IMG/VR virus record: IMGVR_UViG_2531839662_000040
Coordinates: 1-45,525 of that record
Length of the DNA stretch: 45,525 nucleotides
Direction: 5' to 3' (one strand)
From: a virus
Taxonomy: Duplodnaviria > Heunggongvirae > Uroviricota > Caudoviricetes
This document shows positions 6,797 to 37,634 of the stretch, piece after piece. The notes beneath the pieces are model-generated. The model ran no database searches, was not told the DNA's origin, and worked only from the letters and a program-made list of their open reading frames with translations. Each line of letters begins with the position of its first letter. The first letter of the stretch is position 1. The translations under genes and the position numbers were made by a program.

Positions 6797-7024
6797 ATGG
6801 CTTTTAAACTTCTCAGTGTTACCGAAGCAATATACCAGCCTCCCGGAGAACGCCACGAATACAGGATGAATGACGGTAGCGCGGCGGTTGAGTTTCCCAA
6901 ATATCCGGGGGCTTCCCGGTGGCGGTTCTATGACAGTGCGGGACGCCGGATTATTAAAAGAACCGTGCACAACGCCATGAAAGCCGCCGTAGAACGTCAC
7001 AAAAGAAGGTTTAACTGCAAATGA
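6797..7024 (+). CDS. hypothetical protein
   Basis: 75 aa ORF immediately following previous stop. Confidence 0.3.
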   Translation: MAFKLLSVTEAIYQPPGERHEYRMNDGSAAVEFPKYPGASRWRFYDSAGRRIIKRTVHNAMKAAVERHKRRFNCK

Positions 7025-7240
7025 ATATTGAATTTTATGACTACGGAGTCACCGCAAAAATCATTGTTACATGCTGGTTCTGGGAGTTCCGCGCTATTGC
7101 CGGGTTGTGGATGCGGCGCTGTTTGTGGCCCCTGAAGTACACCATCAGAGCGGTGGAGGTCTTTTAATGAGAACCGTCATCACCGGTAAAACGGTCCCGA
7201 TGTTACGGGCGTTTAAAGTGGCAAAACAGGAGGCGACACG

Positions 7241-7555
7241 ATGAGCATTGATAAAACGATAACGATAGATGTAGCCATGAATACAGGTCTGGCGCTTATC
7301 GGTTATGGCTATATCACTTTTATGTCATTCAGGTGGTTGATTTCTTCGGTCTTTAAACAATGTGAAAAACGTCGCTGCAAAGACAAGCGCGTGAAGGCAC
7401 TAAATGCGTTTAATGACGCTTTTGATATTGACCGTATGCAACAGGGCGACCCGGCACGCGTAATTACCCGGGGAGATGTCGTGATTTTGGTATACCGGAG
7501 TGAAAAAATGAGCAGGAGGCGGCGCAGTGAACCAGCAAACCAGAATAAGCGATAA
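7241..7555 (+). CDS. small membrane protein (one predicted TM helix)
   Basis: hydrophobic segment NTGLALIGYGYITFMSFRWLISSVF followed by basic tail; RBS AGGAGG upstream. Confidence 0.35.
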   Translation: MSIDKTITIDVAMNTGLALIGYGYITFMSFRWLISSVFKQCEKRRCKDKRVKALNAFNDAFDIDRMQQGDPARVITRGDVVILVYRSEKMSRRRRSEPANQNKR

Positions 7556-7715
7556 GAGTCTGACCAGACTGATTGCCGATGCGGACAAGGTGCTGGAGCG
7601 GAACACCCCCGTTGCCGATGAGGAATGGTGGCAGGATTTCCGGGCCGCAATGCTGGAACTTCAGGAGCGCCGCAGGGCTGACAGTACAGAGTCAGTAGTA
7701 AATACAGGAGAATGA
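7527..7715 (+). CDS. hypothetical protein
   Basis: GTG-start ORF, acidic 62 aa. Confidence 0.25.
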   Translation: MNQQTRISDKSLTRLIADADKVLERNTPVADEEWWQDFRAAMLELQERRRADSTESVVNTGE

Positions 7716-7719
7716 AACG

Positions 7720-7896
7720 ATGAAAAACCGTAAAGCAATACGACTTCTTTTACAGCGACCTGTGTGTATGGTGTCGCTGGTTATCAGCAACCATAAGATA
7801 GCTGTACTCCATCCATTTGGTCAGGTGGCTTTTACCGTAAATCGTAAACCCACCGCGTCACAGAACAGGCGGAAGAAAGGGTACGCAGTAAGATGA
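7720..7896 (+). CDS. small basic protein (MKNRKA paralog 1, 58 aa)
   Basis: ATG just after AGGAG; not in the ORF track (<60 aa); shares start and C-terminal QNRRK motif with the next ORF. Confidence 0.25.
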   Translation: MKNRKAIRLLLQRPVCMVSLVISNHKIAVLHPFGQVAFTVNRKPTASQNRRKKGYAVR

Positions 7897-8069
7897 AAAA
7901 CCGTAAGGCAAAAATTCTGTTAGCTCGCAGAAACGGTGTTGGGGTCTGGCGATGGTTGAGGATTAGTAACAGACGAGTGAGGTTGACGGGGTGTTGCGGG
8001 GTGATGTTGCACAGCTGTTGCAAAAAGCCCAGCGCGGCGCAAAACCGCAGGAAAAATCACGGTATGTAA
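7893..8069 (+). CDS. small basic Cys-rich protein (MKNRKA paralog 2, 58 aa)
   Basis: ATGA overlap with paralog 1 stop; first 19-21 nt near-identical to paralog 1. Confidence 0.25.
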   Translation: MKNRKAKILLARRNGVGVWRWLRISNRRVRLTGCCGVMLHSCCKKPSAAQNRRKNHGM

Positions 8070-8081
8070 AGGAGGTGCCAG

Positions 8082-8492
8082 GTGAAGAAAATGGTTTTTG
8101 TGGCGGCATTGCTGACAATTACCCAACAGGCGCAGGCTTCAGCAGTTATTGTGGCATCTGCCGCTGCGACCACGGCTGCTGTAGCTGCTGCAAACTCTGC
8201 GAATATCGCAAGCCAACAGGAGCGAGACGCTGCTAACGCATCAGCCAGTGCTCTCCCGATTTCTGTTAAGGGCAGTAAGCAACATCTGGGGTTCATAACG
8301 TGCGGTAAGCGTTCTTATGAAGCTGTAGGCTCACTGGGATGTACGGTATATGGCGACAGTGAGAGCAGAGAAATTCCATGGAAAACGTGGCCCGGATACG
8401 TTCTTGGCTCGAAGCTCCCGGCCAGTTATGAGGTAAACGCCGTGTCGTTTGATCACTATAACGGCGTGGCAACTGTCTATTTCACATACTGA
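8082..8492 (+). CDS. secreted protein with N-terminal signal peptide
   Basis: GTG start 6 nt after AAAGGAGG; MKKMVFVAALLTITQQAQA signal-like N-terminus followed by Ala-rich region. Confidence 0.5.
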   Translation: MKKMVFVAALLTITQQAQASAVIVASAAATTAAVAAANSANIASQQERDAANASASALPISVKGSKQHLGFITCGKRSYEAVGSLGCTVYGDSESREIPWKTWPGYVLGSKLPASYEVNAVSFDHYNGVATVYFTY

Positions 8493-8596
8493 GGCCCGGC
8501 ATGAAATTTTCTGAATCACGGAGCAACAACACGATGAAAGCCATCACCGTAACTCGACGTTCCTGATTTCGCGGGTTGTTTAAACAGTAATCAAAT

Positions 8597-8624
8597 GCAG
8601 ACCAAAACATATGTTTTGGTCTGC
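8597..8624. promoter_or_regulatory. perfect 28-bp palindrome GCAGACCAAAACATATGTTTTGGTCTGC
   Basis: read directly; second partial half-site TTTTGGTC 12 nt downstream; sits before ORF 8647. Confidence 0.35.
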
Positions 8625-8646
8625 CAAAAGTAGTGTTTTGGTCATT

Positions 8647-8925
8647 ATGAAGATTGAACAAATCGGAATAGCTGCTTTCAGGCAGCAGGCTGAAAGCGGT
8701 GGCGTGGATGAGTTCGTTGTGCAGCGGTTCGGTGGTGTGTATCACCTCTTCGCTGTGAATCGCCACGCCGGGGTGTCCTATTTTCTACAGGAACGCCGTG
8801 GCGATTACAAGACATGGCTGTCTCTTGACCGTGCCGCTGCGTTCTTGTCAGGGATTGGCGTTTCACGTTTTACCGTGCGTTTTGAGGATAACAAACATGC
8901 TGAAAAAGATGATCGGGGCCATTAA
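8647..8925 (+). CDS. hypothetical protein
   Basis: ATG at 8647 (ORF track 8611 start lies inside the palindrome); 92 aa. Confidence 0.3.
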   Translation: MKIEQIGIAAFRQQAESGGVDEFVVQRFGGVYHLFAVNRHAGVSYFLQERRGDYKTWLSLDRAAAFLSGIGVSRFTVRFEDNKHAEKDDRGH

Positions 8926-9295
8926 AGCCGGTCAGGCGTATCTGGGGTGGGATGATGCCCTTTATCGCCAGACGCTGGCCCGCCTGACCGGTAAAACCAG
9001 CACCACACGCTGCAATCTCGATGAACTGCGCATCATCCGGGAATACATGCACGAACAGGGATTCCCGCGCAAGGCACCCGCTGGTAAAGGTCGCCGCCCT
9101 CGTGTTGCAATGAGCAGAAAATCAGTATTATCCAAAATTGAAGCGTTGCTGGCTGATGCCGGTCGTTCCTGGGCGTATGCAGAAGGACTGGCATCTCACA
9201 TGTATAAGCAACATGTGATCGAATGGCTGACGGATGAACAGCTTTTTGGAGTGATGGTGGCGCTGGTTAAAGATTCAAGAAGGAGAAATCAATGA
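8897..9295 (+). CDS. GemA-like (Mu gp16 family, DUF1018) regulatory protein
   Basis: internal ATG of ORF 8798; LGWDDALYRQTLARLTGKTS...ELRIIREYMHEQGF resembles recalled GemA N-terminal signature. Confidence 0.5.
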   Translation: MLKKMIGAIKAGQAYLGWDDALYRQTLARLTGKTSTTRCNLDELRIIREYMHEQGFPRKAPAGKGRRPRVAMSRKSVLSKIEALLADAGRSWAYAEGLASHMYKQHVIEWLTDEQLFGVMVALVKDSRRRNQ

Positions 9296-9768
9296 TGAAA
9301 AAATGGTTGTTTTGTTTAGTAGGGGTTATTTTCTCTTGTTCTGTGCTGGCACAGACAGAGGAACAGGCGCAAAAGGAACTGAAACGTTATCAGGATATGA
9401 AGCCATTGGCTGAACAGATGCTTCGGGAAAGTGGAAAACTTTATTACGCTATGCCAGAAGCTGCATCGCAGTATCAGCAGGGAAATATTGAAGAGTGGAA
9501 GAATATCAAAAAAGGACTAAAACAACTGGATGAACAGGCCAGTAAACTGGGGGACGACCCGCTTGATCCTGTGTATGGTTCCTGCATAAAAATGAAAAAC
9601 CAGCTACAGGATTACTGGTCTAACGTTATCAGGGATGACAGGCAGTTTCTGGAGCGTTCAAGAAATCAGTTTAAAGAATATCGTATGGATTGTTTTGATT
9701 CGTTTGTTTTTGGTAAAGAGCAAATAGAATCAAGAAAAGGCCTGGTTATTCTAGACCTGACTAAATAA
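9292..9768 (+). CDS. secreted or periplasmic protein with signal peptide
   Basis: MMKKWLFCLVGVIFSCSVLAQ signal-like N-terminus; followed by a strong terminator. Confidence 0.45.
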   Translation: MMKKWLFCLVGVIFSCSVLAQTEEQAQKELKRYQDMKPLAEQMLRESGKLYYAMPEAASQYQQGNIEEWKNIKKGLKQLDEQASKLGDDPLDPVYGSCIKMKNQLQDYWSNVIRDDRQFLERSRNQFKEYRMDCFDSFVFGKEQIESRKGLVILDLTK

Positions 9769-21984: not shown

Positions 21985-22207
21985 GGCGGCTCACGGGATG
22001 AAGTTCCCGATGGAGGATAACGCCCGGAAATACATCACCACGGAAGCGGTGACCGTTGAGAATACCGCTTATTACCGGCGCGCCGTTCAGGACGGTGACC
22101 TGATTCTGGTGAAGGATGAACCTGAAGCCACCGAGGTGGCTGAACAGGACGCCGTGCAGGTAAAAGCGAAGGTGAAGAAAGAGAAACAGGTGGGCTCCGA
22201 TGAGTGA
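21965..22207 (+). CDS. Mu gp38-like small protein (DUF2635-like)
   Basis: 80 aa immediately upstream of tail sheath. Confidence 0.45.
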   Translation: MNKMKVKAAHGMKFPMEDNARKYITTEAVTVENTAYYRRAVQDGDLILVKDEPEATEVAEQDAVQVKAKVKKEKQVGSDE

Positions 22208-23621
22208 AATTCAGTTTGACACCATTTCGGGCGGCATCCGTAAGCCCGGTGTGCATTTTGAGTTTAATACCCGACTGGCCGTTAACACGCTGCCGGGTAA
22301 TGAACAGCGTGTTCTGGTGATTGGTCCGATGCTGTCAGGCGGCACCGCCACGCCCCTGAATGCCGTCTCCGTGTATTCCGAAGACGAAGCGGATTTGTAT
22401 TTCGGGGCCGGTTCGCTGGCCGCTGCAATGGCGCGCGCGGCCATTAATGCCAACAGCTATCTGCAACTGGATGTTATCGGTATTGCAGACAGTGGCGCAG
22501 GAAAGGCGGCAACCGGCGCAGTTACCGTCAGTGGCACGGCAACCAGCAGCGGCACGCTGTCGGTATGGGTTGCCGGTGAGCAGGTCACGGTGGATGTGGA
22601 AACCGGTGATGAACCGTCGAAAATCATTCCGGCACTGGTGGAAGCAATGACGCAGACGCCATCGCTTCTGGTCACGGGGGAATACAAATCGGAAGCCTCT
22701 CAGCTGACGGTGACCACCCGGACCAAAGGGGCCTGGGGGGATGATATCACCCTGTCAGCGTCCACCACGGCAGGCGGTCTGACCGTGAGCGCCACGCCGA
22801 TGGCGAACGGCGAAATGGATCCGGATATTCAGCCCGCACTGGATGCGGTCTTTGCCGCCGGTCACAACATTCTGATTTGTCCGTTCAGTACCACGCCAGC
22901 CCTTGCTGCCCTGAAGCAGCATCTGGAGAAAACCGGGAACGCGATGGAACAGCGCGGCGCGATTGGCTGTGCGGGCTGGACGGGTAGTCTCGGAAACGGG
23001 ATCACCCTGGCAGCCGGTGTGAACAGCGGGCGCGTGTCCGTCCCCTGGTATCGCGGCTCCGTGAAGCTGCCAGCGGTGCTGGCTGCCATCTACGGCGCTG
23101 TGATGGCGGGCGAGGAAGACCCGGCGCGTCCGCTGAACTCGCTGGCGCTGTCCGGGCTGGATGTGGTCGCCATGTCACAGCGTGAAAGCCGTAACGAGCA
23201 GGAAAACGCCCTGCATAACGGCCTGACACCGGTTGAGGTTGGCCCGGGTAATACGGTGCAGATTGTGCGTGCAGTCAGTACCTACACGGTGAACGCGCAG
23301 GGCGTGGCTGATGTCTCGCTACTGGATATCACGTCCATCAGAACGCTGGATTACACCCGTAAGGCGTGCCGCGAACGTATCAGCCTCCGCTTCCCGCGTG
23401 AAAAACTCAGCACCCGCACTATCGCAAAAGTGGAAAGTGAACTGTATGACGTGCTGATCAAGCTGGAGGAAGCGGAAATTCTGGAGAACGTGGAAGCGAA
23501 CAAGGCAAAGCTGCGCGTTCAGCGAAACGGGAAAGATGCAAACCGTCTCGACTGCGTGGTTCCGGCGGATGTGGTTAACGGCCTGCACGTGTTTGCCGGT
23601 CGCATCGACATGATTTTGTAA
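22200..23621 (+). CDS. tail sheath protein (Mu L-like)
   Basis: 473 aa; followed by tube, chaperone and tape measure. Confidence 0.8.
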   Translation: MSEIQFDTISGGIRKPGVHFEFNTRLAVNTLPGNEQRVLVIGPMLSGGTATPLNAVSVYSEDEADLYFGAGSLAAAMARAAINANSYLQLDVIGIADSGAGKAATGAVTVSGTATSSGTLSVWVAGEQVTVDVETGDEPSKIIPALVEAMTQTPSLLVTGEYKSEASQLTVTTRTKGAWGDDITLSASTTAGGLTVSATPMANGEMDPDIQPALDAVFAAGHNILICPFSTTPALAALKQHLEKTGNAMEQRGAIGCAGWTGSLGNGITLAAGVNSGRVSVPWYRGSVKLPAVLAAIYGAVMAGEEDPARPLNSLALSGLDVVAMSQRESRNEQENALHNGLTPVEVGPGNTVQIVRAVSTYTVNAQGVADVSLLDITSIRTLDYTRKACRERISLRFPREKLSTRTIAKVESELYDVLIKLEEAEILENVEANKAKLRVQRNGKDANRLDCVVPADVVNGLHVFAGRIDMIL

Positions 23622-24550: not shown

Positions 24551-26830
24551 ATGGCCGGTAATTTCAAAGTTGGCATGACCCTGACTGCGAAGGACGAAGC
24601 CTCGCAGGTCCTGGAAAAGGGACAAAAACAGGTTATCAAAGCCACCGAAGGTGTAACAAAGGCAACCCGGAAAGCAGGCGCAGAGCAGAAGCGTACCGAG
24701 CAGGAAAGCATTAACAGCACGAAAAAGGCCGCAAAAGAGATACAGCGTGCCGCCCGTGCCCGGGAAACGCTCGGTATTCGTGCAGAACGCGAGATCCGGC
24801 GTGAAATTTATCTGACGGTTGCCAGTTATAACCGTCTGGCCCGCGCCGGTTTTGAATCTGCGCAGGAGCAGGAGCGCGCCATGCAGGCCACCCGGGAAAA
24901 AGCCCGGGCACTCAAGCGCGAACTGGATGGCGTTACTCAGGCTCAGATGAAGATGGCGAAAACGCCTGTTATCCCTGAACAGGGGCGTTTTGCGCGTGCA
25001 GCTGCATTTGGCAGGAATGCCGTGACAACAGGCGCTGGTATCGCAGCAGGTGCGGCTATTATGGCGCAGCCGGTCAAAAAGCAGATGAGCTACGAACGCC
25101 AGCTGGCAATGATGGCCAATACCGCTTTCAGTGATGGCGGCCTGGAGGGGCGCAGAGCTGGTCTTGAGCAGATGAAAAGCAGCATCCGTAACGCAGTGAC
25201 CTATGGTGGCGGTACGAAAGAGGATGCAGCCGAAACACTGGATGCCTTGCTGAAAGACGGCATTTCATTTGAAACAGCCAGTAAGTGGCTGCCCGAACTG
25301 ATGAAATACGCCACGGCTTCAGGCGCATCTGCAACAGACCTGGCTAAGGTGATGATTAAGGGCAAAAAGACCTTTGGATTCAGGGATGAAGATATTTCCA
25401 CCGTTCTGAATATGGCGATTGCAGCGGGCAAAGAAGGCAGCTTTGAACTGAACGACATGGCCCGCTGGTTATCCCAGCAAATGGGCGCTGCGTCAGCTGC
25501 GGGGATGAAAGGCAAGGATGATTTCGTCAAGATTCTGGCGCTGAATGAAGCTGCCGCCATCACGGCGGGAAGCAGTGATGAAGCCGGAAATAACGTGGTT
25601 AACCTGCTGGCAAAACTGACCAGTAAGGATATTGAAACAGCGGCTGCGGGGATAAATTACAACGGTAAGGGAATCGACTTTTCCGGTACGCTGACTGAAG
25701 CACGTGAGAATGGACTTAATCCGATAGACGCGCTGTCCAGCCTGATAGACAAAATCGTTGCCAGCGATAAACGCTATCAGGAGCTGCAAAAGAAACTGGC
25801 CTCCGCCCGGGATAAAGGTGAGCAGACGGCTGTTTATGATTCGATGGCAACACTCCTTGAAGGCTTTGGTGTCGGAAAGCTGATTGCAGACCGTCAGGCG
25901 TTGATGGCGTTGTTAGCCTACCGTAACAACCCTGAATACCGGAAAAAGGTTGAAGACGCGATTAATCAGCAGCGCACCCTGCCGGAAGGTCAGCGCGCGG
26001 GTGATGTGGATTTTAAATTCATATCAGATACGAATGATTTTAAAACCGAACAGGCTAAAAACACGCTTGAATTTTCACAAATGGACAGCGTGAAAAAGCT
26101 GGCGGATGCATCCGGTACTGTGGCCGATGCCATAAGCTGGGCGGGTGAAAAATTTCCGGGACTGACCACAGCAGTCGTGGGTGCCACGACCGCCATTGAA
26201 GCGATGACCGCAGCAGCCCTGACATGGGCCGGGATCAAAATCCTGACCGGGGGTAAACCCGGTGGCAAGGCTGGCGAGGTTGTCGGTGATGTCATTGAAA
26301 ACACGGTCAAAAAAGGCAAAGGATTTAAATTCCCCGGCATTGCCGGTGGCCTGCTTTCTTTCGGTAGCACCGTTACGGCACTGGCCACTGCAACCAGCCC
26401 GGAAGAAGACGCCGCCGTCGAAGGAAGCGAGGAGCGCTGGAAAAATATACGGGCTAAATATCCTCAGTGGCTGATTGATGCTGCCCGTGAAAAATATCAG
26501 CCGTGGTGGCAGTTTGGCGAAGGTTACTCAACAGAAAACGAGAAATGGATCCAGCAGTATCTTGACGAACTGAAAAAAACCGGGGTTATCGCCGGTGATT
26601 CTCTGCCAACACCAGAACAAGTCCGACAGCAAGCCGGAATGGCAGCGTCTGAAACGGCATCAAAGCAACCCGGACGCATCACCCAGCCGGAATACCTCAC
26701 GCACTGGGGACCACCTGCCAGCCCCATTAATTTCACCACACAACTGGTGCTCGATGGTCAGGTCGTGGCGGAAGCGGTGAATAAATACAACCTTCAGGAC
26801 GGCAACAGAGGCACGGGAGGAACTTACTGA
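24551..26830 (+). CDS. tail tape measure protein (Mu-type)
   Basis: 759 aa, Ala/Gly-rich with predicted coiled regions. Confidence 0.8.
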   Translation: MAGNFKVGMTLTAKDEASQVLEKGQKQVIKATEGVTKATRKAGAEQKRTEQESINSTKKAAKEIQRAARARETLGIRAEREIRREIYLTVASYNRLARAGFESAQEQERAMQATREKARALKRELDGVTQAQMKMAKTPVIPEQGRFARAAAFGRNAVTTGAGIAAGAAIMAQPVKKQMSYERQLAMMANTAFSDGGLEGRRAGLEQMKSSIRNAVTYGGGTKEDAAETLDALLKDGISFETASKWLPELMKYATASGASATDLAKVMIKGKKTFGFRDEDISTVLNMAIAAGKEGSFELNDMARWLSQQMGAASAAGMKGKDDFVKILALNEAAAITAGSSDEAGNNVVNLLAKLTSKDIETAAAGINYNGKGIDFSGTLTEARENGLNPIDALSSLIDKIVASDKRYQELQKKLASARDKGEQTAVYDSMATLLEGFGVGKLIADRQALMALLAYRNNPEYRKKVEDAINQQRTLPEGQRAGDVDFKFISDTNDFKTEQAKNTLEFSQMDSVKKLADASGTVADAISWAGEKFPGLTTAVVGATTAIEAMTAAALTWAGIKILTGGKPGGKAGEVVGDVIENTVKKGKGFKFPGIAGGLLSFGSTVTALATATSPEEDAAVEGSEERWKNIRAKYPQWLIDAAREKYQPWWQFGEGYSTENEKWIQQYLDELKKTGVIAGDSLPTPEQVRQQAGMAASETASKQPGRITQPEYLTHWGPPASPINFTTQLVLDGQVVAEAVNKYNLQDGNRGTGGTY

Positions 26831-28179
26831 TGGGCTGGGCTGAAAACCTGCAAAACGCCTCCTTTCGTGGCGTGCAGTTTGATGTACTGAACACGGATGA
26901 ACAAATCAGCCGCGACCATGCGGTCTATGAATACCCGTTTGTTGACGGGGCGGATTTGCACGACCTCGGGCGCAAGGCGCGACCGTTCCGCATGACGGCG
27001 TTCCTGTGGGGGGAGTATTACGAATATAAACTCGAAAAGCTGATCGCCGCCCTGGACGAAGGCGGCGATGGTGAGCTGATTCACCCGGTTTATGGCTCCG
27101 TTCCGTCGGTGATTGTGACCGGCTACAGCATTCGCCATGACGCAGAAAGCCCGGACAGCTGCACCATCGACATGAGCTTTCTGGAGAACCGCACCGGCAG
27201 CGCGTTGTTCAGCACCCCGTTACCGGAGCTGTTTGCACAGCAGTTATTTGAAGAACTGGATAAGTTACTGGCACAGTTAAGCGAATTATTTGACGCTGTT
27301 ACGGCCCCTTTAAAGACCATTAACAGCGTGATTAAAAAAATCCAGACAGTGCGCGCCACACTGGTAAATACCCTGCTGACGTTCAAAAGCGATTTTCTCT
27401 CATCCATCGACAATATGATGTCGCTGGCCAGCGAACCCGGGAAATTTATTGGCGGGCTGGCAGAGGTGCTGGAAATCCACACGTCAGATGTCGGGCACGC
27501 GGTGCCGGTGCTGGAGCGTACTGATTCCGCCACCACGACCGGACTGACCGGGGAAGACAGCGTCGCCAGTTCTGCGACAGTGATGACCTGCTGGAATGAG
27601 GTGACGGCAGATATGGATGAGCTGGTCGCGCTGCCGGTCGCACTGGTCAGCGGTGATAAAACGCCGTCTGTGGCACTTCCGCCGGATGCGTCCGTGGAAG
27701 ACGTGCAGGACGTGAAAGCGGCTTATGCGGTTCTGGCAGCCTCAGAGCTGGCCAGCGTGGCGACGGCGATACTGTCCGATGAGGCCCAGTCAGAACAGCT
27801 TATACCGGCAGATATCGGGCGACTGGTCGGGGATGTGCGCACCCGCTTACAGGCAGCCATCACGCTGTTCCGTGAACGCTATGAAAGCGAACGCGAACGG
27901 ATAACCGAAACCGCATCACCACTGGGGCTGATGTACCCGGAAATCATTCAGAGCATGAAGAACGTGGCGGCATCCGTGCAGGATGTCGGCCTGCTGGTTC
28001 TGTCACGCCGCCCACCGCTGACGCAGAAACAGGTGCAGGCGGACAGCTGTCTGCTGTTGCTGGCGTGGCAGTGGTACGGTGATTACAGCCGTGCGGCAGA
28101 GCTGCAACGTCTGAACCCGCAGCTGCGTGACCCGAACAACATAACCGCCGGGATGGTGATTAATGCCTACGCAAAATAA
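26830..28179 (+). CDS. Mu N-like DNA circularisation/tail protein
   Basis: 449 aa following tape measure, as in Mu. Confidence 0.7.
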   Translation: MGWAENLQNASFRGVQFDVLNTDEQISRDHAVYEYPFVDGADLHDLGRKARPFRMTAFLWGEYYEYKLEKLIAALDEGGDGELIHPVYGSVPSVIVTGYSIRHDAESPDSCTIDMSFLENRTGSALFSTPLPELFAQQLFEELDKLLAQLSELFDAVTAPLKTINSVIKKIQTVRATLVNTLLTFKSDFLSSIDNMMSLASEPGKFIGGLAEVLEIHTSDVGHAVPVLERTDSATTTGLTGEDSVASSATVMTCWNEVTADMDELVALPVALVSGDKTPSVALPPDASVEDVQDVKAAYAVLAASELASVATAILSDEAQSEQLIPADIGRLVGDVRTRLQAAITLFRERYESERERITETASPLGLMYPEIIQSMKNVAASVQDVGLLVLSRRPPLTQKQVQADSCLLLLAWQWYGDYSRAAELQRLNPQLRDPNNITAGMVINAYAK

Positions 28180-29374
28180 CGACGACAAAATCAGTCTGGT
28201 CATTGCCGGAAGGTCGCATTCTGACTGGAGCAGTTACCGTATTGACAGTGATTTCCTGAAAGCTGCCGACGGCTGGCAGCTTCAGTTGGGACTGCCTGAA
28301 AAGGTGTTCCCGGCGGATATCGTCCGGGGTGCGCCAGTCCGGTTGCAGGTGGGAGACGAAACGGTGCTCAGTGGTCGCGTGGACAGCGTGCGCCGCAGTG
28401 TATCCCGTCAGAGCTGCACGCTGACGCTGTCCGGGCGTGATGATGCCGCCATTCTGGTGGACTGTGCCGCGCCGGTGTTCAGCGCCAACCAGCTGACACT
28501 GGACGAGGTCATCGACAGGATAGTCAGACCGCTGGGGATACAGCGCATTCGTATTCAGGCGTCCGGTGTGTCACGTAATGACAAGGTCGTTATAGAGCCG
28601 GGGATGCGTGCGTGGGATGCACTGGCTAAAGCTGCCGCCGGTCGCGGCTTATGGCCGTGGTTTGAGCCTGACGGGACGCTGGTTGTGGGTGGCCCTGACT
28701 ACACCACCACGCCGGTGGATACGCTGATTCTGAAGCTGGACGGCACCGGGAACAACGTGATGGAGCTGGATGATACCCGGTCCATTAACGGCTGCTTCTC
28801 CGAACTTACAGTGCTGGCACAGAGCCACGCCCGCCGCGCAGACAGCAAAAAGCAGCTGGCCACAGTGCCACTGGATATCTGGAACGAGGACGGCAGCGTG
28901 CGCACATTATCCGGGCGGGACGGCGGTAATACGGACAATGGCCAGACAGGCATTCATAACATGAAAGCTGTGGCCACCGACCCCACCGTGGATTATTACC
29001 GCCCGCAGATTATCACTCAGGGTGACACCAGCAACCTGGAGCAGGTGAACTGGCGCGCCAAAAAAATGATGAGTGATGCCCGTCTGTCGGGGCTGGATAT
29101 CGTCGCACTGGTTGCAGGTCATCGCACGGCGGACGGTGTCCTGTGGCAGCCCGGCCAGCGTGTGCGGATTGTCAGCGAACCCCACGGCATCGACGCCATC
29201 TTTTTCCTGATGGGGCGTGAGTTCAGCGGAGGCCGTAACGGGAAGACAACCCGGCTCCGATTTAAGGAGGACGGCGTGTGGATACCTGACGCCTTCCCGC
29301 GCGAGAAGAAACGCCATCACCGCAGGGGCAAAAAGAAAAAAGAGGTCGCCATTGTTAAGGTCTGGGAGAAATGA
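28163..29374 (+). CDS. Mu P-like tail protein (P2 gpD-like fold)
   Basis: 403 aa; synteny N then P. Confidence 0.7.
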   Translation: MPTQNNDDKISLVIAGRSHSDWSSYRIDSDFLKAADGWQLQLGLPEKVFPADIVRGAPVRLQVGDETVLSGRVDSVRRSVSRQSCTLTLSGRDDAAILVDCAAPVFSANQLTLDEVIDRIVRPLGIQRIRIQASGVSRNDKVVIEPGMRAWDALAKAAAGRGLWPWFEPDGTLVVGGPDYTTTPVDTLILKLDGTGNNVMELDDTRSINGCFSELTVLAQSHARRADSKKQLATVPLDIWNEDGSVRTLSGRDGGNTDNGQTGIHNMKAVATDPTVDYYRPQIITQGDTSNLEQVNWRAKKMMSDARLSGLDIVALVAGHRTADGVLWQPGQRVRIVSEPHGIDAIFFLMGREFSGGRNGKTTRLRFKEDGVWIPDAFPREKKRHHRRGKKKKEVAIVKVWEK

Positions 29375-30024
29375 TGTGGGACAAAGTTAATCAGCGCGTA
29401 CAGCAGGCACTGGCCGCCGTTCGCCAGGCATTCAGGGTGGTGACCGGTACGGTGGACAGTTCGACCAAAGTACAGTTGCTTCAGCTGAACGGGCTGGCAG
29501 GCGAACAGCTGGATGGTGCGGAGTATTTCCAGCATTACGGCCTCACCACATCTCCGCCACCCGGCTCGATGGGTATTGCCGTTCCGCTGAACGGCAATAC
29601 CTCCCATACCGTCGTCGTGGCCACAGAGCACGGCGCATATCGCCTGACGGAACTGAAACCCGGCGAGGTGGCCCTGTATACCGATGAAGGCGCGAAAATC
29701 GTACTGAAACGCGGGCGGGTTGTTGAAACGGACTGTGACGTTTACCGGGTGAAATGCAAACGCTATGAGGTTGAGGCAGAGGAAAGTGCCGCATTCACGA
29801 CACCGTTACTGACGGCCAGCGATAAGCTGACGGTGGAAGGTAAAATCACCGGCAACGGTGGCATGGCCATCAGTGGGGGCAAGAAATACGCCGCCACCTT
29901 TGAAGGCAACATCAACCATGTGGGTGGTGTGATTACCTCCGTTGACGTCACCGTTAATGGCGTTAAAATCGGAACGCATAAACACGATACCCCTCACGGC
30001 ATATCTGGTCTGCCGCATAATTAA
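29371..30024 (+). CDS. baseplate spike protein (Mu gp45 / P2 gpV-like)
   Basis: 217 aa; C-terminal His-rich apex GTHKHDTPHGISGLPHN. Confidence 0.65.
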   Translation: MMWDKVNQRVQQALAAVRQAFRVVTGTVDSSTKVQLLQLNGLAGEQLDGAEYFQHYGLTTSPPPGSMGIAVPLNGNTSHTVVVATEHGAYRLTELKPGEVALYTDEGAKIVLKRGRVVETDCDVYRVKCKRYEVEAEESAAFTTPLLTASDKLTVEGKITGNGGMAISGGKKYAATFEGNINHVGGVITSVDVTVNGVKIGTHKHDTPHGISGLPHN

Positions 30025-30044
30025 GTGCTGAACCCCCTCACCTG
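30025..30044 (+). promoter_or_regulatory. conserved late-operon motif, copy 3 (GTGCTGAACCCCCTCACCTG)
   Basis: shares GTGCTGAAC core with copies at 10660 and 18083; lies between spike and gp46-like genes. Confidence 0.35.
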
Positions 30045-30077
30045 ATTCTGACCTGTCCATGCTGCCAGACTGGCGGC

Positions 30078-30428
30078 ATGGACCAGACGATTTCACCTGC
30101 AACCGGCGACTACGAACGCCGCCGGATTTATACACTCCATAACGCGGTTTATCTGCGACTGGCGACACCGCTTGGCAGTTACTGGGCGGATGCGTCGCTG
30201 GGGTCACGCCTGCACGAACTGAAGCGGGAAAAAGACGTTTCCCGTGTTCACAGGCTGGCGGCGCAGTATGCCAGCCAGGCACTTCAGCCCCTGCTTGATG
30301 ACGGGCGGGCAAAATCCATTACCGTTGACACGAAAGCGGGCCAGCGCGGCTGGTTGTTGCTGTTAATCACTGTCACGGATAACGCGGGCACACCGCAGAC
30401 GTTTGAACACCCTGTGAGGATTATGTAA
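30078..30428 (+). CDS. baseplate protein (Mu gp46 / P2 gpW-like)
   Basis: 116 aa by synteny. Confidence 0.55.
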   Translation: MDQTISPATGDYERRRIYTLHNAVYLRLATPLGSYWADASLGSRLHELKREKDVSRVHRLAAQYASQALQPLLDDGRAKSITVDTKAGQRGWLLLLITVTDNAGTPQTFEHPVRIM

Positions 30429-31507
30429 TGCCGTTTCCTGTTCCGGGCGTTGCTGAAAACACAGAACGCCAGCTACGTGATATCGCTAACGCCCTGCCGG
30501 GAGAAACCATCGACACCGGCGCTGACAGCGATTACCGCATTCGTGCAAATGCCGTATCCGGCGTGGCGGACGGGCTTTATATGCATCAGGGATGGATCCT
30601 CCGTCAGGTGTTTCCTGACACGGCAGACCCTGAATATCTGGAGCTGCACTGCCGTACGCGCAATGTTTTTCGTAAAAAAGCAACGGCCTCATCCGGTCCG
30701 GTAGTGATTACCGGCACACCCGGTAAGACGCTGCCAGCCGGTGCGGAAATTCGTGGTGAAGGTGTCAGCGTGACCACCACAGCAGACTGCACCGTCGGCG
30801 ATGAAGGCAGTGCAGAGGTGACGGTAAAAAGCTCCGCCACGGGTGCACAGACGAACGCATCCGCAACGCAGACGGCAACGCTGGTCAGCCCGCCGGAAGG
30901 CATCAACAGCACGGTGACGATTAAATCCCTGACCGGCGGAACGGACAGGGAAAGCGACGCCGACCTGCTGGCGCGTTATCTGGATATTCTGCGCAGGCCG
31001 CCCGCTGGCGGTAACAAATATGATTACAAACGCTGGGCGCTGGAAGTGGATGGCGTTACGTCTGCGTATGTGGAGCCGTTGCGTCGTGGACTGGGGACGG
31101 TTGATGTGGCCATTACGTCAGCCAATGACCTCCCTTCGCAGGAACTGATTAATGCCGTGCTGGCACATATTGAGGAAGTCCGCCCGGTCACAGCGAAAGA
31201 CACGATGGTACTGGCCCCGACGAAAAAAGCCGTTGATTTCGTTGTCCGGGTAAAAACCAGCGGCCTGACCGTTGAGCAGATAAAACCGCAGATAACTGAC
31301 GTTATCACGGATTTTATGAACCGGCTGGAGCCGGGGCAGGAATTAATTATTTCACAACTGGAAACCCAGATTTCATTAATTTCCGGTGTCAGTGACCGGC
31401 GAATCATTACGCCAGCAGACAATGTAAAAGCCATTATTAACGCGTCAACGTGGGAATGGCTGCGTCCGGGAAATATTGATATTCAGTCCTTTCCGCGTGA
31501 GGGGTGA
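30428..31507 (+). CDS. baseplate J-like protein (Mu gp47)
   Basis: 359 aa by synteny and size. Confidence 0.7.
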   Translation: MPFPVPGVAENTERQLRDIANALPGETIDTGADSDYRIRANAVSGVADGLYMHQGWILRQVFPDTADPEYLELHCRTRNVFRKKATASSGPVVITGTPGKTLPAGAEIRGEGVSVTTTADCTVGDEGSAEVTVKSSATGAQTNASATQTATLVSPPEGINSTVTIKSLTGGTDRESDADLLARYLDILRRPPAGGNKYDYKRWALEVDGVTSAYVEPLRRGLGTVDVAITSANDLPSQELINAVLAHIEEVRPVTAKDTMVLAPTKKAVDFVVRVKTSGLTVEQIKPQITDVITDFMNRLEPGQELIISQLETQISLISGVSDRRIITPADNVKAIINASTWEWLRPGNIDIQSFPREG

Positions 31508-31510
31508 TTC

Positions 31511-32083
31511 ATGAATATGGTCGATTTATTTCGCGCCATGCTGCCGCCTGTCAGTTATGACCAGAACGGAAAATATATTTCCGCAGAACTGATGGCCGAG
31601 GCTAACGTCATGGAGGCCGTGAAGGCATCAGCGGCGAGTGTTCTGGCACAAATCACCCCATTGCAGGCATCGATGACGCTGTCTGACTGGGAGCGCGTGT
31701 ACGGTGTTGTCCCCCGTGAAGGTGCCACGCAACAGGAGAGGCGGCAGAACATCCAGGTCAGGATGGCTGCCACTGGCGGGCTGTCAATTCCTTACTTTAA
31801 GAGTCTTGCCGCCAGCCTGGGCTACACCATCACCATTACGGAGCCGCGAGCGTTCCGGGTGGGGATAAATCGCTGCGGTGACCGTCTGCTGATACCGGAA
31901 ATCCGCTGGGTGTGGCAGGTCAATGTTATCGGGACAAAAACGCCGGTCTACCGTTTCAGAACGGGGGCATCGGCAACCGGCGAACCGCTGACGGCCTTTG
32001 GTGAATCCATTTTAGAAAACACGTTTAAAGACCTTAAACCGGCTTTTACAGACTGTTATTTCACATATGAGGTGGAGGAATAA
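31511..32083 (+). CDS. baseplate/tail protein (Mu gp48 / P2 gpI-like)
   Basis: 190 aa by synteny. Confidence 0.6.
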
Positions 32084-33066
32084 TGCAGAATTTAATGCCT
32101 CCGGTGAATACGCCGGATAAGCTATTTCATGATGGTGACCCCACTCAGGGAATTGAGGGAACCATCGTTTACGCCGAATATATGAATAATCATCAGGCGG
32201 CAACGCGCGATTTGCAGCAGGAGGTGATTAACGTCCTTAAAGAGGCTGGCGTAACCCCGGATCCGAAAAAACAGAATCAACTGGTTGAGGCGCTGGCCTT
32301 ATATGTCGGGAAAAAAGTTCCTGACGCATCATTAACGAAGAAGGGTATCGTTCAGCTCAGTAGTGCAACAGACAGTGATTCAGAAGAACTGGCTGCCACC
32401 CCAAAGGCAATAAAGGCGTTAGCAAAAAAAATTGCTGATTTACAGGGTACGGCTTTACCGGTCGGGACACCAATCCCGTGGCCATCTGATTCTGTGCCAT
32501 CCGGTTATGCCTTAATGCAGGGGCAAAGTTTTGATAAAGGCTCTTACCCTAAACTTGCGGTTGCCTATCCGTCCGGGGTTATTCCTGATATGCGCGGCTG
32601 GACTATCAAGGGTAAGCCTGCCAGTGGTCGTGCCGTATTGTCTCAGGAACAGGATGGCATCAAGTCGCATACCCACAGTGCCAGTGCGTCAAATACCGAT
32701 TTAGGAACGAAAACGACAAGTTCATTTGACTACGGCACCAAGACAGTCAGCACGTTTAACCACGGCACAAAATCAACAAATAACACAGGAAATCATACGC
32801 ACAGTGTCGGTGGTGTTTATGGCGGCGACTCTATCGGCGGAAAACAACGTGTGCAGGCGTCAGGGAGCAATCAGATTTCCAGTACTGCCGGAGCACATGC
32901 TCATACTGTCGATATTGGTCAGCATAACCACACCGTAGGTATTGGTGCCCATGCACACACTGTGGCATTGGGTGCGCACGGGCACACCATCACGGTAAAT
33001 CCAACAGGCAATACCGAAAACACCGTCAAAAACATTGCATATAACTATATTGTGAGGCTGGCATAA
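32083..33066 (+). CDS. tail fibre protein (Mu S / P2 H-like) with His-rich HxH repeats at C-terminus
   Basis: N-terminal [25 protein letters not shown] and collar-like [11 protein letters not shown]...PDMRG; C-terminal HTHS, GNHTHS, GAHAHTV, QHNHTV, GAHAHTV, GAHGHTI repeats. Confidence 0.7.
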
Positions 33067-33686: not shown

Positions 33687-35303
33687 ATGTCTGTATTAAT
33701 CTCAGGCGCGCTTATTAATGGCGCTGGCGTTCCGATGGCGGAATGCAAAATTTATTTAGATGCACTGGTTAATACCAGTGAGGTGGTCACTGAATCATTC
33801 GCGGTTATTGAAACCGATGCGGCGGGACAGTATGCCTTTGAAGCGCAAAAAGGCAAATACACCGTACACATCAAGCAAAAGAACGGCCCCAAGTGCTGCG
33901 TGGGTGATATCGCTGTATACGATGACTCAAAGCCCGGCACACTGAATGATTTTCTGACCGCCCCCAATGAAGGCGACCTCAAACCCGACGTGGTGAAACG
34001 CTTTGAGGAAATGGTGGCGCAGGCGCAGCAGAGCGCGGAAGCGGCAGCGGAAAGCGAACGACAGGCCGGGCAACACGCAGCTGATGCGCAGAAGATTAAG
34101 GGTGATTGCCAGACGCTGGCAGATAATGTTCAGCAGAATACAAATGCTGTGGAGGAAAACACGCAGCGCGTTGAACAGCTGGCCTCAGAAGTTGAGCTGA
34201 ACGCCGGGCAGGTGCAGCAGGGCGTGCAGAATGTTACTGATGCGGTAAAAAAGGCGCAGCAGGCAGCAAAGAATTCTGCTGACAGTGCCACTGACTCAAA
34301 AAACAGTGCTGACAACGCCGCCCTGAGCGAACAGAACGCACAAAAACACGCGCAGAAAGCTGAACAACATGAGCAGCAGACTAAACAATATGCGCAGGAT
34401 GCAGCGACCGCCGCAGAATCAGCAGAGAACGCCAAAGGCGAAATTGACGAAATTCTGGATGGCGGCTATCTCAAGATAAAAAACAACTTTCAGGAAATTG
34501 TTGATGCTGGCCCCTCAGCACTGGCTCAGGCCCAATGGAATTTACAGATTTCCGGGGTGAAAAATAAACAGGTAATTGCCACCCCTTATACATGGCCATC
34601 CAGAACTGAGTATGAACAAAGGGTGCATCTGCCACTCGCCGGGGCTTACGGATTTGGCTACACGTTTGAAGACAAAAGCCAGGGACGTATAAACCTTAGC
34701 GAAAGTTACACCGGCTCCTGGTGGTCACAGTGGGTAAAGCCGGGGCGTTATTACGTTACAACCAGTGATAAACAATATCTGACACCAGACGGGTACACGT
34801 ACGGGGTTGTTGATGTGCTGTGGCTTAACGGTAACGCATATAATGACGCTTCGCAGGTTCTTAAAATACTGGCTTTTTACGATGGTGACGGATGCCTGCA
34901 TATCGGCAAGCGCGTTGGTCAGAGCAACTGGTCAATAAGCTGGCGCAAGCTGACATCGCTCCCTGATGTCAGGGCCATGCTGTATTCATATATTTATAAT
35001 AATTACAACAGAGAATGGCGTGACCCGGAGCTGGGAGGTTTAATTCTGGCGTCATACCAGGGAACCGCAGACGGCGACACAAATATAAAAGTATCCCGTG
35101 GTCAGACTTATCCCGGCTCACGACTTGCACCTGTGGCGATAGAATGCCAGTTCACTCCATCCGGTACGTATGCCGCAACACCGCGATTCCATATTACCGG
35201 CTGCAAGAGCAAATCACTCCCCGGAACTTATATTTCACTGTCTGGAGCACCCACAACATACAGCGACCAGGCTTTTGTGGCGCTATTCATGAGGATTGCA
35301 TGA
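33687..35303 (+). CDS. side tail fibre protein (lambdoid Stf-like N-terminus)
   Basis: 538 aa; MSVLISGALINGAG N-terminus of lambdoid Stf type; Ala/Gln-rich coiled middle; distinct C-terminal domain. Confidence 0.65.
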   Translation: MSVLISGALINGAGVPMAECKIYLDALVNTSEVVTESFAVIETDAAGQYAFEAQKGKYTVHIKQKNGPKCCVGDIAVYDDSKPGTLNDFLTAPNEGDLKPDVVKRFEEMVAQAQQSAEAAAESERQAGQHAADAQKIKGDCQTLADNVQQNTNAVEENTQRVEQLASEVELNAGQVQQGVQNVTDAVKKAQQAAKNSADSATDSKNSADNAALSEQNAQKHAQKAEQHEQQTKQYAQDAATAAESAENAKGEIDEILDGGYLKIKNNFQEIVDAGPSALAQAQWNLQISGVKNKQVIATPYTWPSRTEYEQRVHLPLAGAYGFGYTFEDKSQGRINLSESYTGSWWSQWVKPGRYYVTTSDKQYLTPDGYTYGVVDVLWLNGNAYNDASQVLKILAFYDGDGCLHIGKRVGQSNWSISWRKLTSLPDVRAMLYSYIYNNYNREWRDPELGGLILASYQGTADGDTNIKVSRGQTYPGSRLAPVAIECQFTPSGTYAATPRFHITGCKSKSLPGTYISLSGAPTTYSDQAFVALFMRIA

Positions 35304-35872
35304 TGCAGATAAAAGAAATTACCAGCCCCCACTACACCGAATCCGGTGCGATTGACTGCGAAGTTTTATTTGAAGGGATGGATGAAGCCGTTCCGTACAC
35401 AGCCACACCAGAAGACACAGCAACAACAGGCCAGCAAATTTGGCAGGAACTGCAAAGCGGCAAATGGGGCGAGATTGCCCCGTTCACCGCATCACCTGAA
35501 CTTATCGCAGCAGCAAAGGACGCCAAAAAACGGGAAATTGAGGCATGGCGCACAGAACAGGAAGCGCAGCCATTCACGTTCGAATGGAACGGCCGCACAT
35601 GGAACGCTGGCCCCGACTCAATGGCCCGTCTTTATCCTGTGGTAATGGCTGCAAAATCTGATACGGCACGAACTGCCCTTGCGTGGGGTGACGCCGATAA
35701 TCAACAGGTGAAACTGTCGATGCCGGAACTGGAAGAACTGGCAGCCGCGATGGCGCAGGCGCAGGTTGAGCGCAATGACGAGATTTATCAACGCCAGCGT
35801 GAGATGAAGGAGGAACTGAATAACCTGGATGATTTACGCTCAATCAGAGCGATGACGATTAGCAGCAGTTAG
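35300..35872 (+). CDS. tail fibre assembly protein (Tfa)
   Basis: ATGA overlap with fibre stop; 190 aa; highly similar to the Tfa at 44953..45525. Confidence 0.65.
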   Translation: MMQIKEITSPHYTESGAIDCEVLFEGMDEAVPYTATPEDTATTGQQIWQELQSGKWGEIAPFTASPELIAAAKDAKKREIEAWRTEQEAQPFTFEWNGRTWNAGPDSMARLYPVVMAAKSDTARTALAWGDADNQQVKLSMPELEELAAAMAQAQVERNDEIYQRQREMKEELNNLDDLRSIRAMTISSS

Positions 35873-35876
35873 CGGT

Positions 35877-35937
35877 CAATTCTGGACTTTTTGGGCGCAC
35901 CTGAACCGTCCAGAATTGCGCGTCAATCAGTCCAGAA
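35877..35937. repeat. inverted repeat CAATTCTGGAC / GTCCAGAATTG with third TCCAGAA copy
   Basis: 11-bp arms separated by 20 nt; third half-site about 12 nt further on; lies between a Tfa and an N-terminally short fibre ORF. Confidence 0.35.
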
Positions 35938-35955
35938 AAAAACGCGAAGTTACAG

Positions 35956-37032
35956 ATGATCAGCGACAGAGGTACGCTTATCGCGTACGGACGTTATCCC
36001 GACACCTTTTTACCAGACCAGACGGACTCCGTTATCAAGGAAGTTATTCTGACGCTGGTTCTTGGGTTGACGCACGCACAAAACGTGGTGCTGGAAGTTG
36101 ATCCGGACAGGGCCATTATTACTCAGGAAATCGGAGACAGACGCTATCTGCAACGAAAAAAGAATCTTTCGGATGTGGAAGACAAGGATGAGGCTGTTGA
36201 AAACCTCGGATTAAAACCCACGGTGGACAAGGCAAAAAATGCCGTTCAGCGTGATGGTGACACCATGACCGGGGAACTGAAAATCCGTGGTGTTAATGCG
36301 CTGAGGATTTTCAACGAGGCTTTTGGCCTGATTTTTCGTCGTTCAGAAGATTACCTGCACTTCATTCCCACGCAGGAAGACCATGGAGAAAATGGTGATA
36401 TTGGCCCACTGCGGCCCATTTCCATTAACCTGCGCCAGGGCGATGTGGTTATTGGTGACAGGATTGGCATCGGTAATGAGAACAATCTGGGTGAAAAATC
36501 ACTCACGCTCTGTGATAGCAATACCGGTTTTAAGTGGGGCGGACGCGGTGTTATTAATGTGTTTGCAGAGGGACACAACGTCTTTCGTTTTACAAAAAAC
36601 GGTGTGCTGGCATTAGAAAATCTCTCGACCGGCAATTTAAGAAAGTTCACGCTGTCGTGTGACAGTTCTTCCACGAAGAGTGCAAGATTTAATCTATGGG
36701 GAAATTCCTCAAGGCCTGTTGTTGCAGAGCTTGGTGATGATTCTGGCTGGCATTTTTACAGTCAGAGGAATACGGATAACAGCATAACGTTTGCCGTAAA
36801 CGGGCAGATGGTTCCATCAAACTACGGAAATTTTGATACCCGTTACCAGACCAGAACAGGTGGTGTGCAGGATGTGCGTCTGGGAGGTGCCATTGGTATT
36901 GGACGCGGAGGAAATGCGCCATCAGGTCATTTACTGAGTGGTGTTGATGGCGGTGAAAGTGTGGACTGGGCCAATGCACGCCCGGTGCAGGTTCTGATTA
37001 ATGGTGTCTGGCGAAATGTAGCGAGTTTGTAA
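35956..37032 (+). CDS. tail fibre C-terminal-type protein lacking Stf/H-like N-terminal domain
   Basis: 358 aa; GDTMTGEL fibre motif and Gly-rich C-terminus; weak RBS; frame open about 50 nt upstream without start codon. Confidence 0.5.
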   Translation: MISDRGTLIAYGRYPDTFLPDQTDSVIKEVILTLVLGLTHAQNVVLEVDPDRAIITQEIGDRRYLQRKKNLSDVEDKDEAVENLGLKPTVDKAKNAVQRDGDTMTGELKIRGVNALRIFNEAFGLIFRRSEDYLHFIPTQEDHGENGDIGPLRPISINLRQGDVVIGDRIGIGNENNLGEKSLTLCDSNTGFKWGGRGVINVFAEGHNVFRFTKNGVLALENLSTGNLRKFTLSCDSSSTKSARFNLWGNSSRPVVAELGDDSGWHFYSQRNTDNSITFAVNGQMVPSNYGNFDTRYQTRTGGVQDVRLGGAIGIGRGGNAPSGHLLSGVDGGESVDWANARPVQVLINGVWRNVASL

Positions 37033-37034
37033 TC

Positions 37035-37580
37035 ATGATGCACTTAAAAAATCTTACGGCACAAAACCCTAAAACAATTGAGCAATACCAGCTGGCACGA
37101 CAGCATAAATTTTTATTGTGGCTGTTCTCCGATGATGGTCAGGAATGGCACGAAGCCCAGGAAAAATTTCAGCCAGACACTCTGAAAGTTATTTATGTTG
37201 AAACTGGCGAAGTGGTCTGGGTCGGAAAAGACATCACCTCAATCTGCCCGGAAAATAAAAGTGTGATTGAGTTGCCGGATATTACCGCTAATCGTCGCAT
37301 TGAGGCGTCGGGATACTGGTTCTACCGCAATGATGAATTTGTTTTTGACTACAAACTTAAAGCGGAAGATGAGCGTGATGCACTGTTAAAACAGGTCAGC
37401 ATCATGACCAGCGAATGGGAAAAAGACCTGCTGCTGGGATTAATCAGTGACGAAGACAGGGAAAAGCTCAAAGCGTACCGCATTTACGCGAAATCGCTGC
37501 AGGCGATGGATTTCAGCGCTATTACGGATAAGACCACTTACAACAATATTAGCTGGCCTGAGCAGCCACAAAATACCTGA
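37035..37580 (+). CDS. tail fibre assembly protein (P2 G / TfaE-like)
   Basis: 181 aa; MMHLKNLTAQNPKT...VELPDITANRR resembles recalled TfaE-type chaperones. Confidence 0.7.
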   Translation: MMHLKNLTAQNPKTIEQYQLARQHKFLLWLFSDDGQEWHEAQEKFQPDTLKVIYVETGEVVWVGKDITSICPENKSVIELPDITANRRIEASGYWFYRNDEFVFDYKLKAEDERDALLKQVSIMTSEWEKDLLLGLISDEDREKLKAYRIYAKSLQAMDFSAITDKTTYNNISWPEQPQNT

Positions 37581-37599
37581 AAAAGAAGTTAATCATCTG

Positions 37600-37621
37600 A
37601 CCGCCTGAGGGCGGTTTTTTT
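37600..37621 (+). terminator. rho-independent terminator
   Basis: ACCGCC-TGAG-GGCGGT followed by seven T. Confidence 0.6.
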
Positions 37622-37634
37622 ATGGGAGAAATGT

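Follow-up and report, generated by a model that had tools for sequence, protein, structure and literature searches.

Two overlapping mini-genes in a Mu-like early region belong to PHROG 1380, a mobile family of small basic phage proteins

The DNA analysed here (the window) is a stretch of 45,525 nucleotides, positions 1 to 45,525 of IMG/VR virus record IMGVR_UViG_2531839662_000040, and matches the chromosome of the porcine E. coli strain UMNF18 at 100% identity. In its early operon, genes for a Mu transposase and an AAA ATPase are followed by DUF3164, DUF2786 and DUF4752 genes (Pfam and PHROG assignments) and then by the two mini-genes under study, downstream of which lie GemA (Pfam, E 2.9e-18) and Mor (PHROG 836, E 1.2e-42). 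The mini-gene region is therefore flanked by transposase A, the B ATPase, GemA and Mor, as in the early region of a Mu-like transposable prophage, and an earlier note on this DNA, which had placed small basic proteins in such a setting, is borne out. The features at the locus are as follows.

7527 to 7715, + strand: gene for an acidic 62-aa protein (phrog_14672, pI 4.7), with its stop 4 nt before the orfA start
7706 to 7710, + strand: Shine-Dalgarno-like AGGAG, 9 nt before the orfA ATG
7720 to 7896, + strand: orfA, ATG start, 58 aa, MKNRKAIRLL...QNRRKKGYAVR; PHROG 1380 subtype A1; pI 12, 13 K+R, no D or E
7893 to 7896, + strand: ATGA, stop/start overlap of orfA and orfB
7893 to 8069, + strand: orfB, ATG start, 58 aa, MKNRKAKILL...QNRRKNHGM; PHROG 1380 subtype B; pI 12, 16 K+R, no D or E
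8070 to 8075, + strand: AGGAGG, Shine-Dalgarno sequence of the exported-protein gene, 6 nt before the GTG at 8082
8082 to 8492, + strand: predicted exported protein, 136 aa, GTG start; phrog_8805, E 3.1e-82; UniRef homologue 'Prophage exported protein'

The open reading frame list and the sequence confirm what the earlier note had described: two 58-codon frames with similar MKNRKA heads and QNRRK tails that overlap at an ATGA, followed by a strong ribosome binding site and a signal-peptide gene. A repeat finder recovered the 20-nt head, GATGAAAAACCGTAA(A/G)GCAA, twice at a distance of 173 nt, and the two products share 43% identity over 54 residues with a BLASTP E of 4e-09, a resemblance beyond chance. 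The claim that these are paralogous genes for small basic proteins in a Mu-like early operon thus holds. The net charge is +13 for the orfA product and +16 for that of orfB, and acidic residues are absent from both. RefSeq (PGAP) annotation of the source genome lists orfB as WP_000797272.1, a 'hypothetical protein,' and leaves orfA out. B-type copies are likewise unannotated in several other genomes, including an O104:H4 strain. The gene immediately upstream (7527 to 7715) is a component of the Mu-like backbone and stands outside the mini-gene family. In relatives its product has 102 aa instead of the 62 found here, and truncation or recombination may have shaped the window copy.

Profile comparison placed residues 1 to 58 of orfA on positions 1 to 60 of PHROG 1380 (E 1.2e-20) and residues 1 to 57 of orfB on positions 1 to 57 (E 3.6e-28), and by these matches to its 62-position profile both are members of this phage family of unknown function. 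The family consensus reads MKNRKAK-x-LL...(I/L/V)SN(R/H)(R/K)...G...K(P)SAAQNR(W/R)KNH, and both frames carry the MKNRKA head, the central S-N-(R/H)-(R/K) and the KP(S/T)A(A/S)QNR(W/R)K tail; alignment columns M1, N3, R4, K5, A6, L9, R13, V18, S25 and N26 are invariant. Each product also departs from the rest of the family. The orfA protein sits in the divergent A subtype, a clade separate from B-G with at most 39% identity to any other subtype, and the orfB protein has an unusual R where the family has W in QNRWK, together with a short NHGM tail that accompanies the exported-protein cassette. Neither orfA nor orfB had a significant match in Pfam, NCBIfam or PADLOC, and PADLOC-DB, whose models cover defence and not anti-defence, gave no family at E<=1 for orfA, orfB or their neighbours.

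A profile search of 1.84 billion representative proteins recovered 46 clusters of the family plus a few low-complexity repeat proteins. Database members are named only 'hypothetical' or 'prophage protein,' their source names are limited to Escherichia, Shigella, Salmonella and Citrobacter, and the GTDB species representatives contain just two loci, one in Citrobacter braakii and one on a 228-bp contig labelled Acinetobacter. A copy was detectable in 557 of 5,426 complete E. coli genomes, at 386 chromosomal and 263 plasmid places, and a match covering at least 80% of the orfA-orfB pair was present in 135 complete E. coli genomes. In Citrobacter rodentium ICC168 one protein is identical to orfB (CBG87058.1) and the member of the orfA cluster is CBG87059.1; the adjoining accessions suggest that this strain carries the same pair. 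The family is confined to temperate phages of enterobacteria, namely Mu-like, lambdoid or Stx, P1-like and phiV10 genomes. A gene found in about one-tenth of complete E. coli genomes, including the Stx phages of EHEC and P1-like plasmid prophages, is thus known solely as 'hypothetical,' is often left unannotated and has no known function. No paper turned up when the literature was searched with the peptide head and with the PHROG number.

Related Mu-like prophages hold other genes in the mini-gene slot. P1-like genomes have a mini-gene in an accessory block with EaA, and phiV10 (Uetakevirus) has two or three copies (p49-p51) after its replication genes. In VT2-Sakai the mini-gene belongs to the variable portion of the exo-xis region, downstream of an ea22-like gene, and the annotation shows it as the C-terminal part of an over-long orf8. 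Unrelated upstream genes precede a common leader, CAGGAGA(G/A)...ACG-ATG, with an RBS-like CAGGAGAG conserved 7 to 8 nt before the ATG, and variable downstream genes start exactly 1 nt after the mini-gene stop. Among the IMG/VR matches listed, the gene downstream of the mini-gene(s) encodes a 69-aa Cys-rich protein in at least 44 loci, a 171-aa protein in at least 21, a member of a group represented by a 170-aa protein in at least 17 and one of about 15 other kinds in the remaining loci. The genes most often found on either side of the family in other phages had no Pfam match. A small frame of 51 to 58 aa ending in ...AAARRAAKRRRRAKR usually precedes the mini-gene at lambdoid loci; it occurs in the VT2-Sakai locus (L001, 2850 to 3005) and in at least 81 IMG/VR loci, and this candidate ORF is joined by an ATGA to the ea22-like gene on one side and to the mini-gene on the other.

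Two known classes of phage accessory gene invite comparison. Lambdoid members of the family occupy the niche of the exo-xis region, as orf8 of VT2-Sakai does, and they resemble its genes in being early-transcribed, of unknown function and part of a block that varies in number and kind. Published work describes the genes after ea22 as a block whose number and kind vary and in which partial duplications occur, and it gives the mini-gene no function (PMC8614690); the exo-xis literature describes this variable block and not the mini-gene, which is also not among the genes of the phi24B expression study. The mini-genes showed no detectable sequence relation to any characterised exo-xis protein, and in the window they sit in a Mu-type early operon instead of the lambda pL operon. 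The second comparison is with phage morons, which are likewise horizontally mobile accessory genes lying between the backbone genes of unrelated phages. Morons, in contrast, are defined by a promoter and terminator of their own, and none was found around the mini-genes: there were no promoter-like sites within 6800 to 9400 and no + strand terminator-like sites between 7419 and 8597. The mini-genes also differ in being translationally coupled to their neighbours by stop/start overlaps, and these features count against a moron identity. As judged from their surroundings, the mini-genes are in-operon cassettes without a promoter or terminator of their own.

Scanning IMG/VR with the conserved head gave at least 120 loci holding at least 161 units, which we sorted into eight subtypes (A1, A2, B, C, D, E, F and G). 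Among the matches listed, 151 of 161 units are intact ORFs of at least 55 aa. Of 94 unique 174-nt units, 89 have no stop in the proposed frame, compared with 0, 0, 1, 10 and 0 for the remaining five. The earlier note had proposed that its reading would fail if neither frame were conserved in relatives and no translation were seen, and the frame is conserved. Codon alignment showed that subtypes differ in length by whole codons. In six of the eight subtypes (C, A1, B, E, G and D) pN/pS is 0.15 to 0.4 and differences are in excess at third positions, and subtypes F and A2 have little or no codon periodicity in their differences. Between subtypes the conserved central Ser is encoded variously as AGC, AGT or TCA and Arg by CGN or AGR, and the QNR(W/R)K tail reads CAG AAC AGG CGG AAG in A types and CAA AAC CGC TGG AAA in B-F, so that the central (I/L/V)-S-N-(R/H)-(R/K) motif and the tail are retained despite synonymous codon switches. 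With the frame kept open, pN/pS low, codons switched synonymously at conserved residues and the ribosome binding site preserved, orfA and orfB are, on this comparative evidence, protein-coding and under purifying selection. The literature search found no experimental evidence for translation or function of the mini-genes.

Frameshifted variants exist in the databases. The tails of P0004-P0006 and P0011 are read in another frame, and P0006 occurs on 91 contigs, so the mini-gene can be dispensed with, at least in the prophage state. Other database members are in-frame fusions of an Ea22-like N terminus with a mini-protein. These frameshifts and fusions (P0004-P0006, P0011 and P0041) indicate frequent recombination and occasional decay at the locus.

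The conserved ends of the mini-genes overlap translation signals, and part of their conservation may lie at the DNA or RNA level. An explanation built on this point, which we regard as unlikely, treats the mini-genes as linker or coupling cistrons that are translated, with selection maintaining chiefly their ends and the peptide having little or no function. The A-rich head and its ribosome binding site would give efficient initiation, the tail would supply the next gene's ribosome binding site and a stop-start junction, and both ends would provide homology for swapping neighbouring cargo genes. Head and tail DNA are indeed nearly identical across subtypes B-F around a middle at random-level identity, and at least six unrelated cargo families begin 1 nt after the stop, behind AAAGGAGAG inside the tail. 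The NHGM-stop-AGGAGG tail accompanies the secreted-protein gene whether the copy in front of it is of E, B or A type, and some lineages tolerate frameshifted tails. However, the middle is under purifying selection within subtypes, as the pN/pS values show, and all eight subtypes keep S-N-(R/H)-(R/K) and a Gly 10 residues after the Asn via synonymous changes. QNR(W/R)K is encoded differently in the A, G and B-F types, which argues for conservation at the amino-acid level, and two or three diverged copies in series would be superfluous in a mere coupling device. The narrower idea that the tail is only a DNA-level junction, prompted by the out-of-frame database proteins, was rejected as the main explanation by the codon analysis and survives as a partial truth within the linker account.

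The explanation we favor, with slightly better than even confidence, is that orfA and orfB form a translated pair of basic PHROG 1380 proteins, carried as a mobile cassette of the early operon and likely to bind nucleic acid and to act on the host. Lacking a promoter and terminator of their own and lying between the transposase genes and GemA/Mor, the mini-genes would be expected to be transcribed early, along with the Mu-type early operon, after induction or infection. Translation would be serial, with orfA read from its own AGGAG and orfB through the coupling that the ATGA overlap at 7893 to 7896 implies. Recombination shifts the family as an in-operon cassette between unrelated temperate enterobacterial phages, the cassette's place in lambdoid and Stx genomes being after ea22 in the exo-xis region, and breakpoints fall in or next to the conserved head (ribosome binding site plus MKNRKAK) and tail (KPSAAQNRWKNH plus the ribosome binding site of the next gene).

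What the products do is suggested by which positions are conserved and by how the copies are arranged. Among the matches listed, 39 of 40 A-type units are followed at an ATGA by another copy, and since A-type copies nearly never occur without an overlapping non-A copy, the A-type product and the non-A product that follows it probably act together. What all subtypes conserve are polar or basic positions, and the hydrophobic segments between them vary, a pattern that fits conservation set by ligand contacts. Invariant N, R, K, S, Q and W positions, combined with the lack of any acidic residue, make binding to a nucleic acid or an acidic target the most likely activity; the ligand would be RNA, DNA or a highly acidic host target shared by Escherichia, Salmonella and Citrobacter. 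Because the family has spread at high DNA identity between unrelated backbones, a host target is likelier than a phage-specific one, and we infer a host-directed accessory role.

Structure prediction added little. AlphaFold2 on the mini-protein alignment gave one long helix at low confidence (pLDDT 66.8, pTM 0.26), so the model offers no fold backing for nucleic-acid binding. The best hits of a profile search against the PDB, at E of about 1.3 to 2 (an archaeal membrane protein and the NHL repeats of TRIM71), were not significant. The family core N-x-(R/K)-h-x-h-h-x-x-x-G has the spacing of the NHL blade motif N-H-R-I-Q-V-F-x-x-x-G, but with PDB matches at E of about 2 and Pfam NHL unmatched at E<=1 this is a resemblance only. 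Arginine-rich RNA-binding peptides and small basic ribosomal proteins, such as the amino-terminal arm of lambda N, L34 and L36, offer another comparison. They too are very small with few or no acidic residues, conserve Arg, Lys, Asn, Gln and Trp and have no confidently predicted independent fold; the mini-proteins have no detectable homology to them.

A more specific form of the favored explanation has, in our estimate, a low probability of being correct. The A-type protein would be an adaptor with an interchangeable B-G partner, and the two would form a hetero-oligomer on a host RNA, DNA or acidic factor, disabling a function or defence found throughout the Enterobacteriaceae. If true, this two-component reading would account for the spread of the cassette across Mu-like, lambdoid, P1-like and phiV10-like phages, for the near absence of solitary A-type copies and for the divergence of the subtype centres between invariant polar motifs.

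Small, strongly cationic proteins could instead be membrane-active or toxic peptides, either Kil-like division inhibitors or depolarising agents, possibly working with the downstream exported protein, and we consider this quite unlikely. The early regions of Mu and lambda encode small killing functions (Mu kil and lambda kil), which counts in its favor, as do the moderately hydrophobic centre of orfA, VCMVSLVISNHKIAVLHPFGQVAFTV, and the exported product encoded next door. Against it, inspection shows that most subtypes, orfB among them, have Arg or Lys throughout the centre and no plausible membrane span, the GRAVY values of the two mini-proteins are -0.24 and -0.63, and the exported protein follows mini-genes in just five of the loci listed and occurs elsewhere without them. 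Membrane activity or toxicity is thus possible for orfA alone and unlikely for most subtypes, given their arginine-rich central segments. A type I toxin-like or other small membrane peptide was rejected as an identity on the same grounds, namely the lack of a membrane-length hydrophobic span in most subtypes including orfB (by inspection) and negative GRAVY.

The earlier note had also read the pair as a recent duplication coupled to a secreted protein, and the almost identical heads of 20 nt, the shared length, the overlap at ATGA and the next gene's strong ribosome binding site do give that impression. A recent local duplication that formed a functional unit with the secreted protein is nevertheless highly improbable. 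The two frames are 39% identical in amino acids and 43% in nucleotides overall, and by segment their DNA agrees at 19 of 21 head positions, 33 of 108 central positions (31%) and 21 of 39 tail positions. They are not each other's closest relatives, as orfA has DNA counterparts at 91% identity in phages TL-2011b/c and at 84% in P1-like phages, and orfB at 93% in phiV10 and at 95 to 96% in other E. coli chromosomes. Tandem layouts among the IMG/VR matches listed are A1-C (at least 25 loci), A2-E (at least 3) and B-F (at least 2), with C-F, A2-D, A1-F, A1-C-F and the A1-B of the window in addition, and every tandem array found has the same -4 ATGA overlap. What recurs is the layout, an A copy overlapping a second copy, and the partner can be B, C, D, E or F. 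Given this recurring A-then-X layout and the deep divergence of A from non-A types, orfA and orfB represent an old, combinatorial arrangement of two subtypes.

The exported protein has its own history. Read by eye, its N terminus resembles a Sec signal with an AXA cleavage motif, MKKMVFVAALLTITQQAQA followed after cleavage by SA, in which MKK, MVFVAALLTI and TQQAQA (cleaved before S) can be taken as the parts of the signal peptide; the cleavage site has no Cys nearby, which argues against a lipoprotein. The protein also has an Ala-rich segment and, in its C-terminal domain, two invariant Cys, and the AlphaFold2 model (pLDDT 48.8) was unusable. The supposed coupling to the mini-genes did not hold up: among the matches listed this gene is downstream in just 5 of about 110 scorable loci, and it is present without any mini-gene in the virulent phage Av-05 (Vequintavirinae) and in P1-like plasmids, where it comes directly after an Ea22-like gene. 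One related Mu-like prophage has the exported protein after an Ea22-like gene, and another Mu-like relative has neither mini-genes nor exported protein. The lone exception among A-type units, locus L024, lacks orfB yet keeps orfA (one residue different), with the exported-protein gene directly after it. Whichever mini-gene subtype precedes, the exported-protein gene is accompanied by a GGTATGTAAAGGAGGT(G/A)CCAGGTG string, and the short tail seen behind E-, B- and A-type copies moves with it, which places a recombination junction inside the conserved mini-gene tail. From these distributions, the exported-protein gene is an independent cassette and no conserved partner of the mini-genes. In Av-05 (L130) its DNA counterpart, at 1514 to 1924, is 78% identical, which points to an unusual exchange between temperate and virulent phages.

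Finally, we dismiss as exceedingly improbable the reading that the repeated unit is a small RNA or other nucleic-acid element with fortuitous ORFs, for which the missing annotation of orfA in RefSeq and of B-type copies in several genomes and the odd composition (rich in Arg, Cys and Trp) might speak, given a frame open in 89 of 94 unique units listed versus almost none in other frames, whole-codon length differences, synonymous replacement at conserved residues and an Rfam search of 7000 to 9300 that, at permissive E-values, returned one chance-level miRNA match only.

PHROG 1380 was already known as a family. New here are the evidence for coding by both frames, including the unannotated orfA, which corrects the annotation of the source genome, together with the A-then-partner architecture and the cassette behaviour across phages. 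The finding does not by itself reveal a new mechanism; a real, selected and mobile gene in a fixed A-then-partner layout does give studies of early accessory functions in phages a small, concrete target.

Several other features of the window were noted. Between the exported-protein gene and the next gene, at 8597 to 8643, lies a perfect 28-bp palindrome, GCAGACCAAAACAT joined to ATGTTTTGGTCTGC, with a second, imperfect copy, CCAAAAGTAGTGTTTTGGTC, after it; an operator and an RNA hairpin are both possible roles. The 'gcagaccaaaa' of this region stands directly 3' of a B-type mini-gene in some relatives, so the palindrome is part of the Mu-like backbone. Between GemA and Mor, positions 9292 to 9768 encode another probable exported protein (158 aa, N terminus MMKKWLFCLVGVIFSCSVLAQ...); it had no match in Pfam or PHROG, and its slot holds a 112-aa gene in one related prophage. 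The Mu-like tail genes include the sheath (22200 to 23621), tape measure (24551 to 26830), baseplate (28163 to 31507) and fibre (32083 to 33066). They are followed, from about 33687 to 45525, by a second contractile-tail set with fibre N-terminal domains (33687 to 35303 and 43550 to 44953), a fibre assembly protein (37035 to 37580), sheath (37635 to 39110), tube (39107 to 39625) and gpU (41759 to 42253), so that the Mu-like prophage apparently borders either the remnant of a P2-like prophage or a tail-only element.
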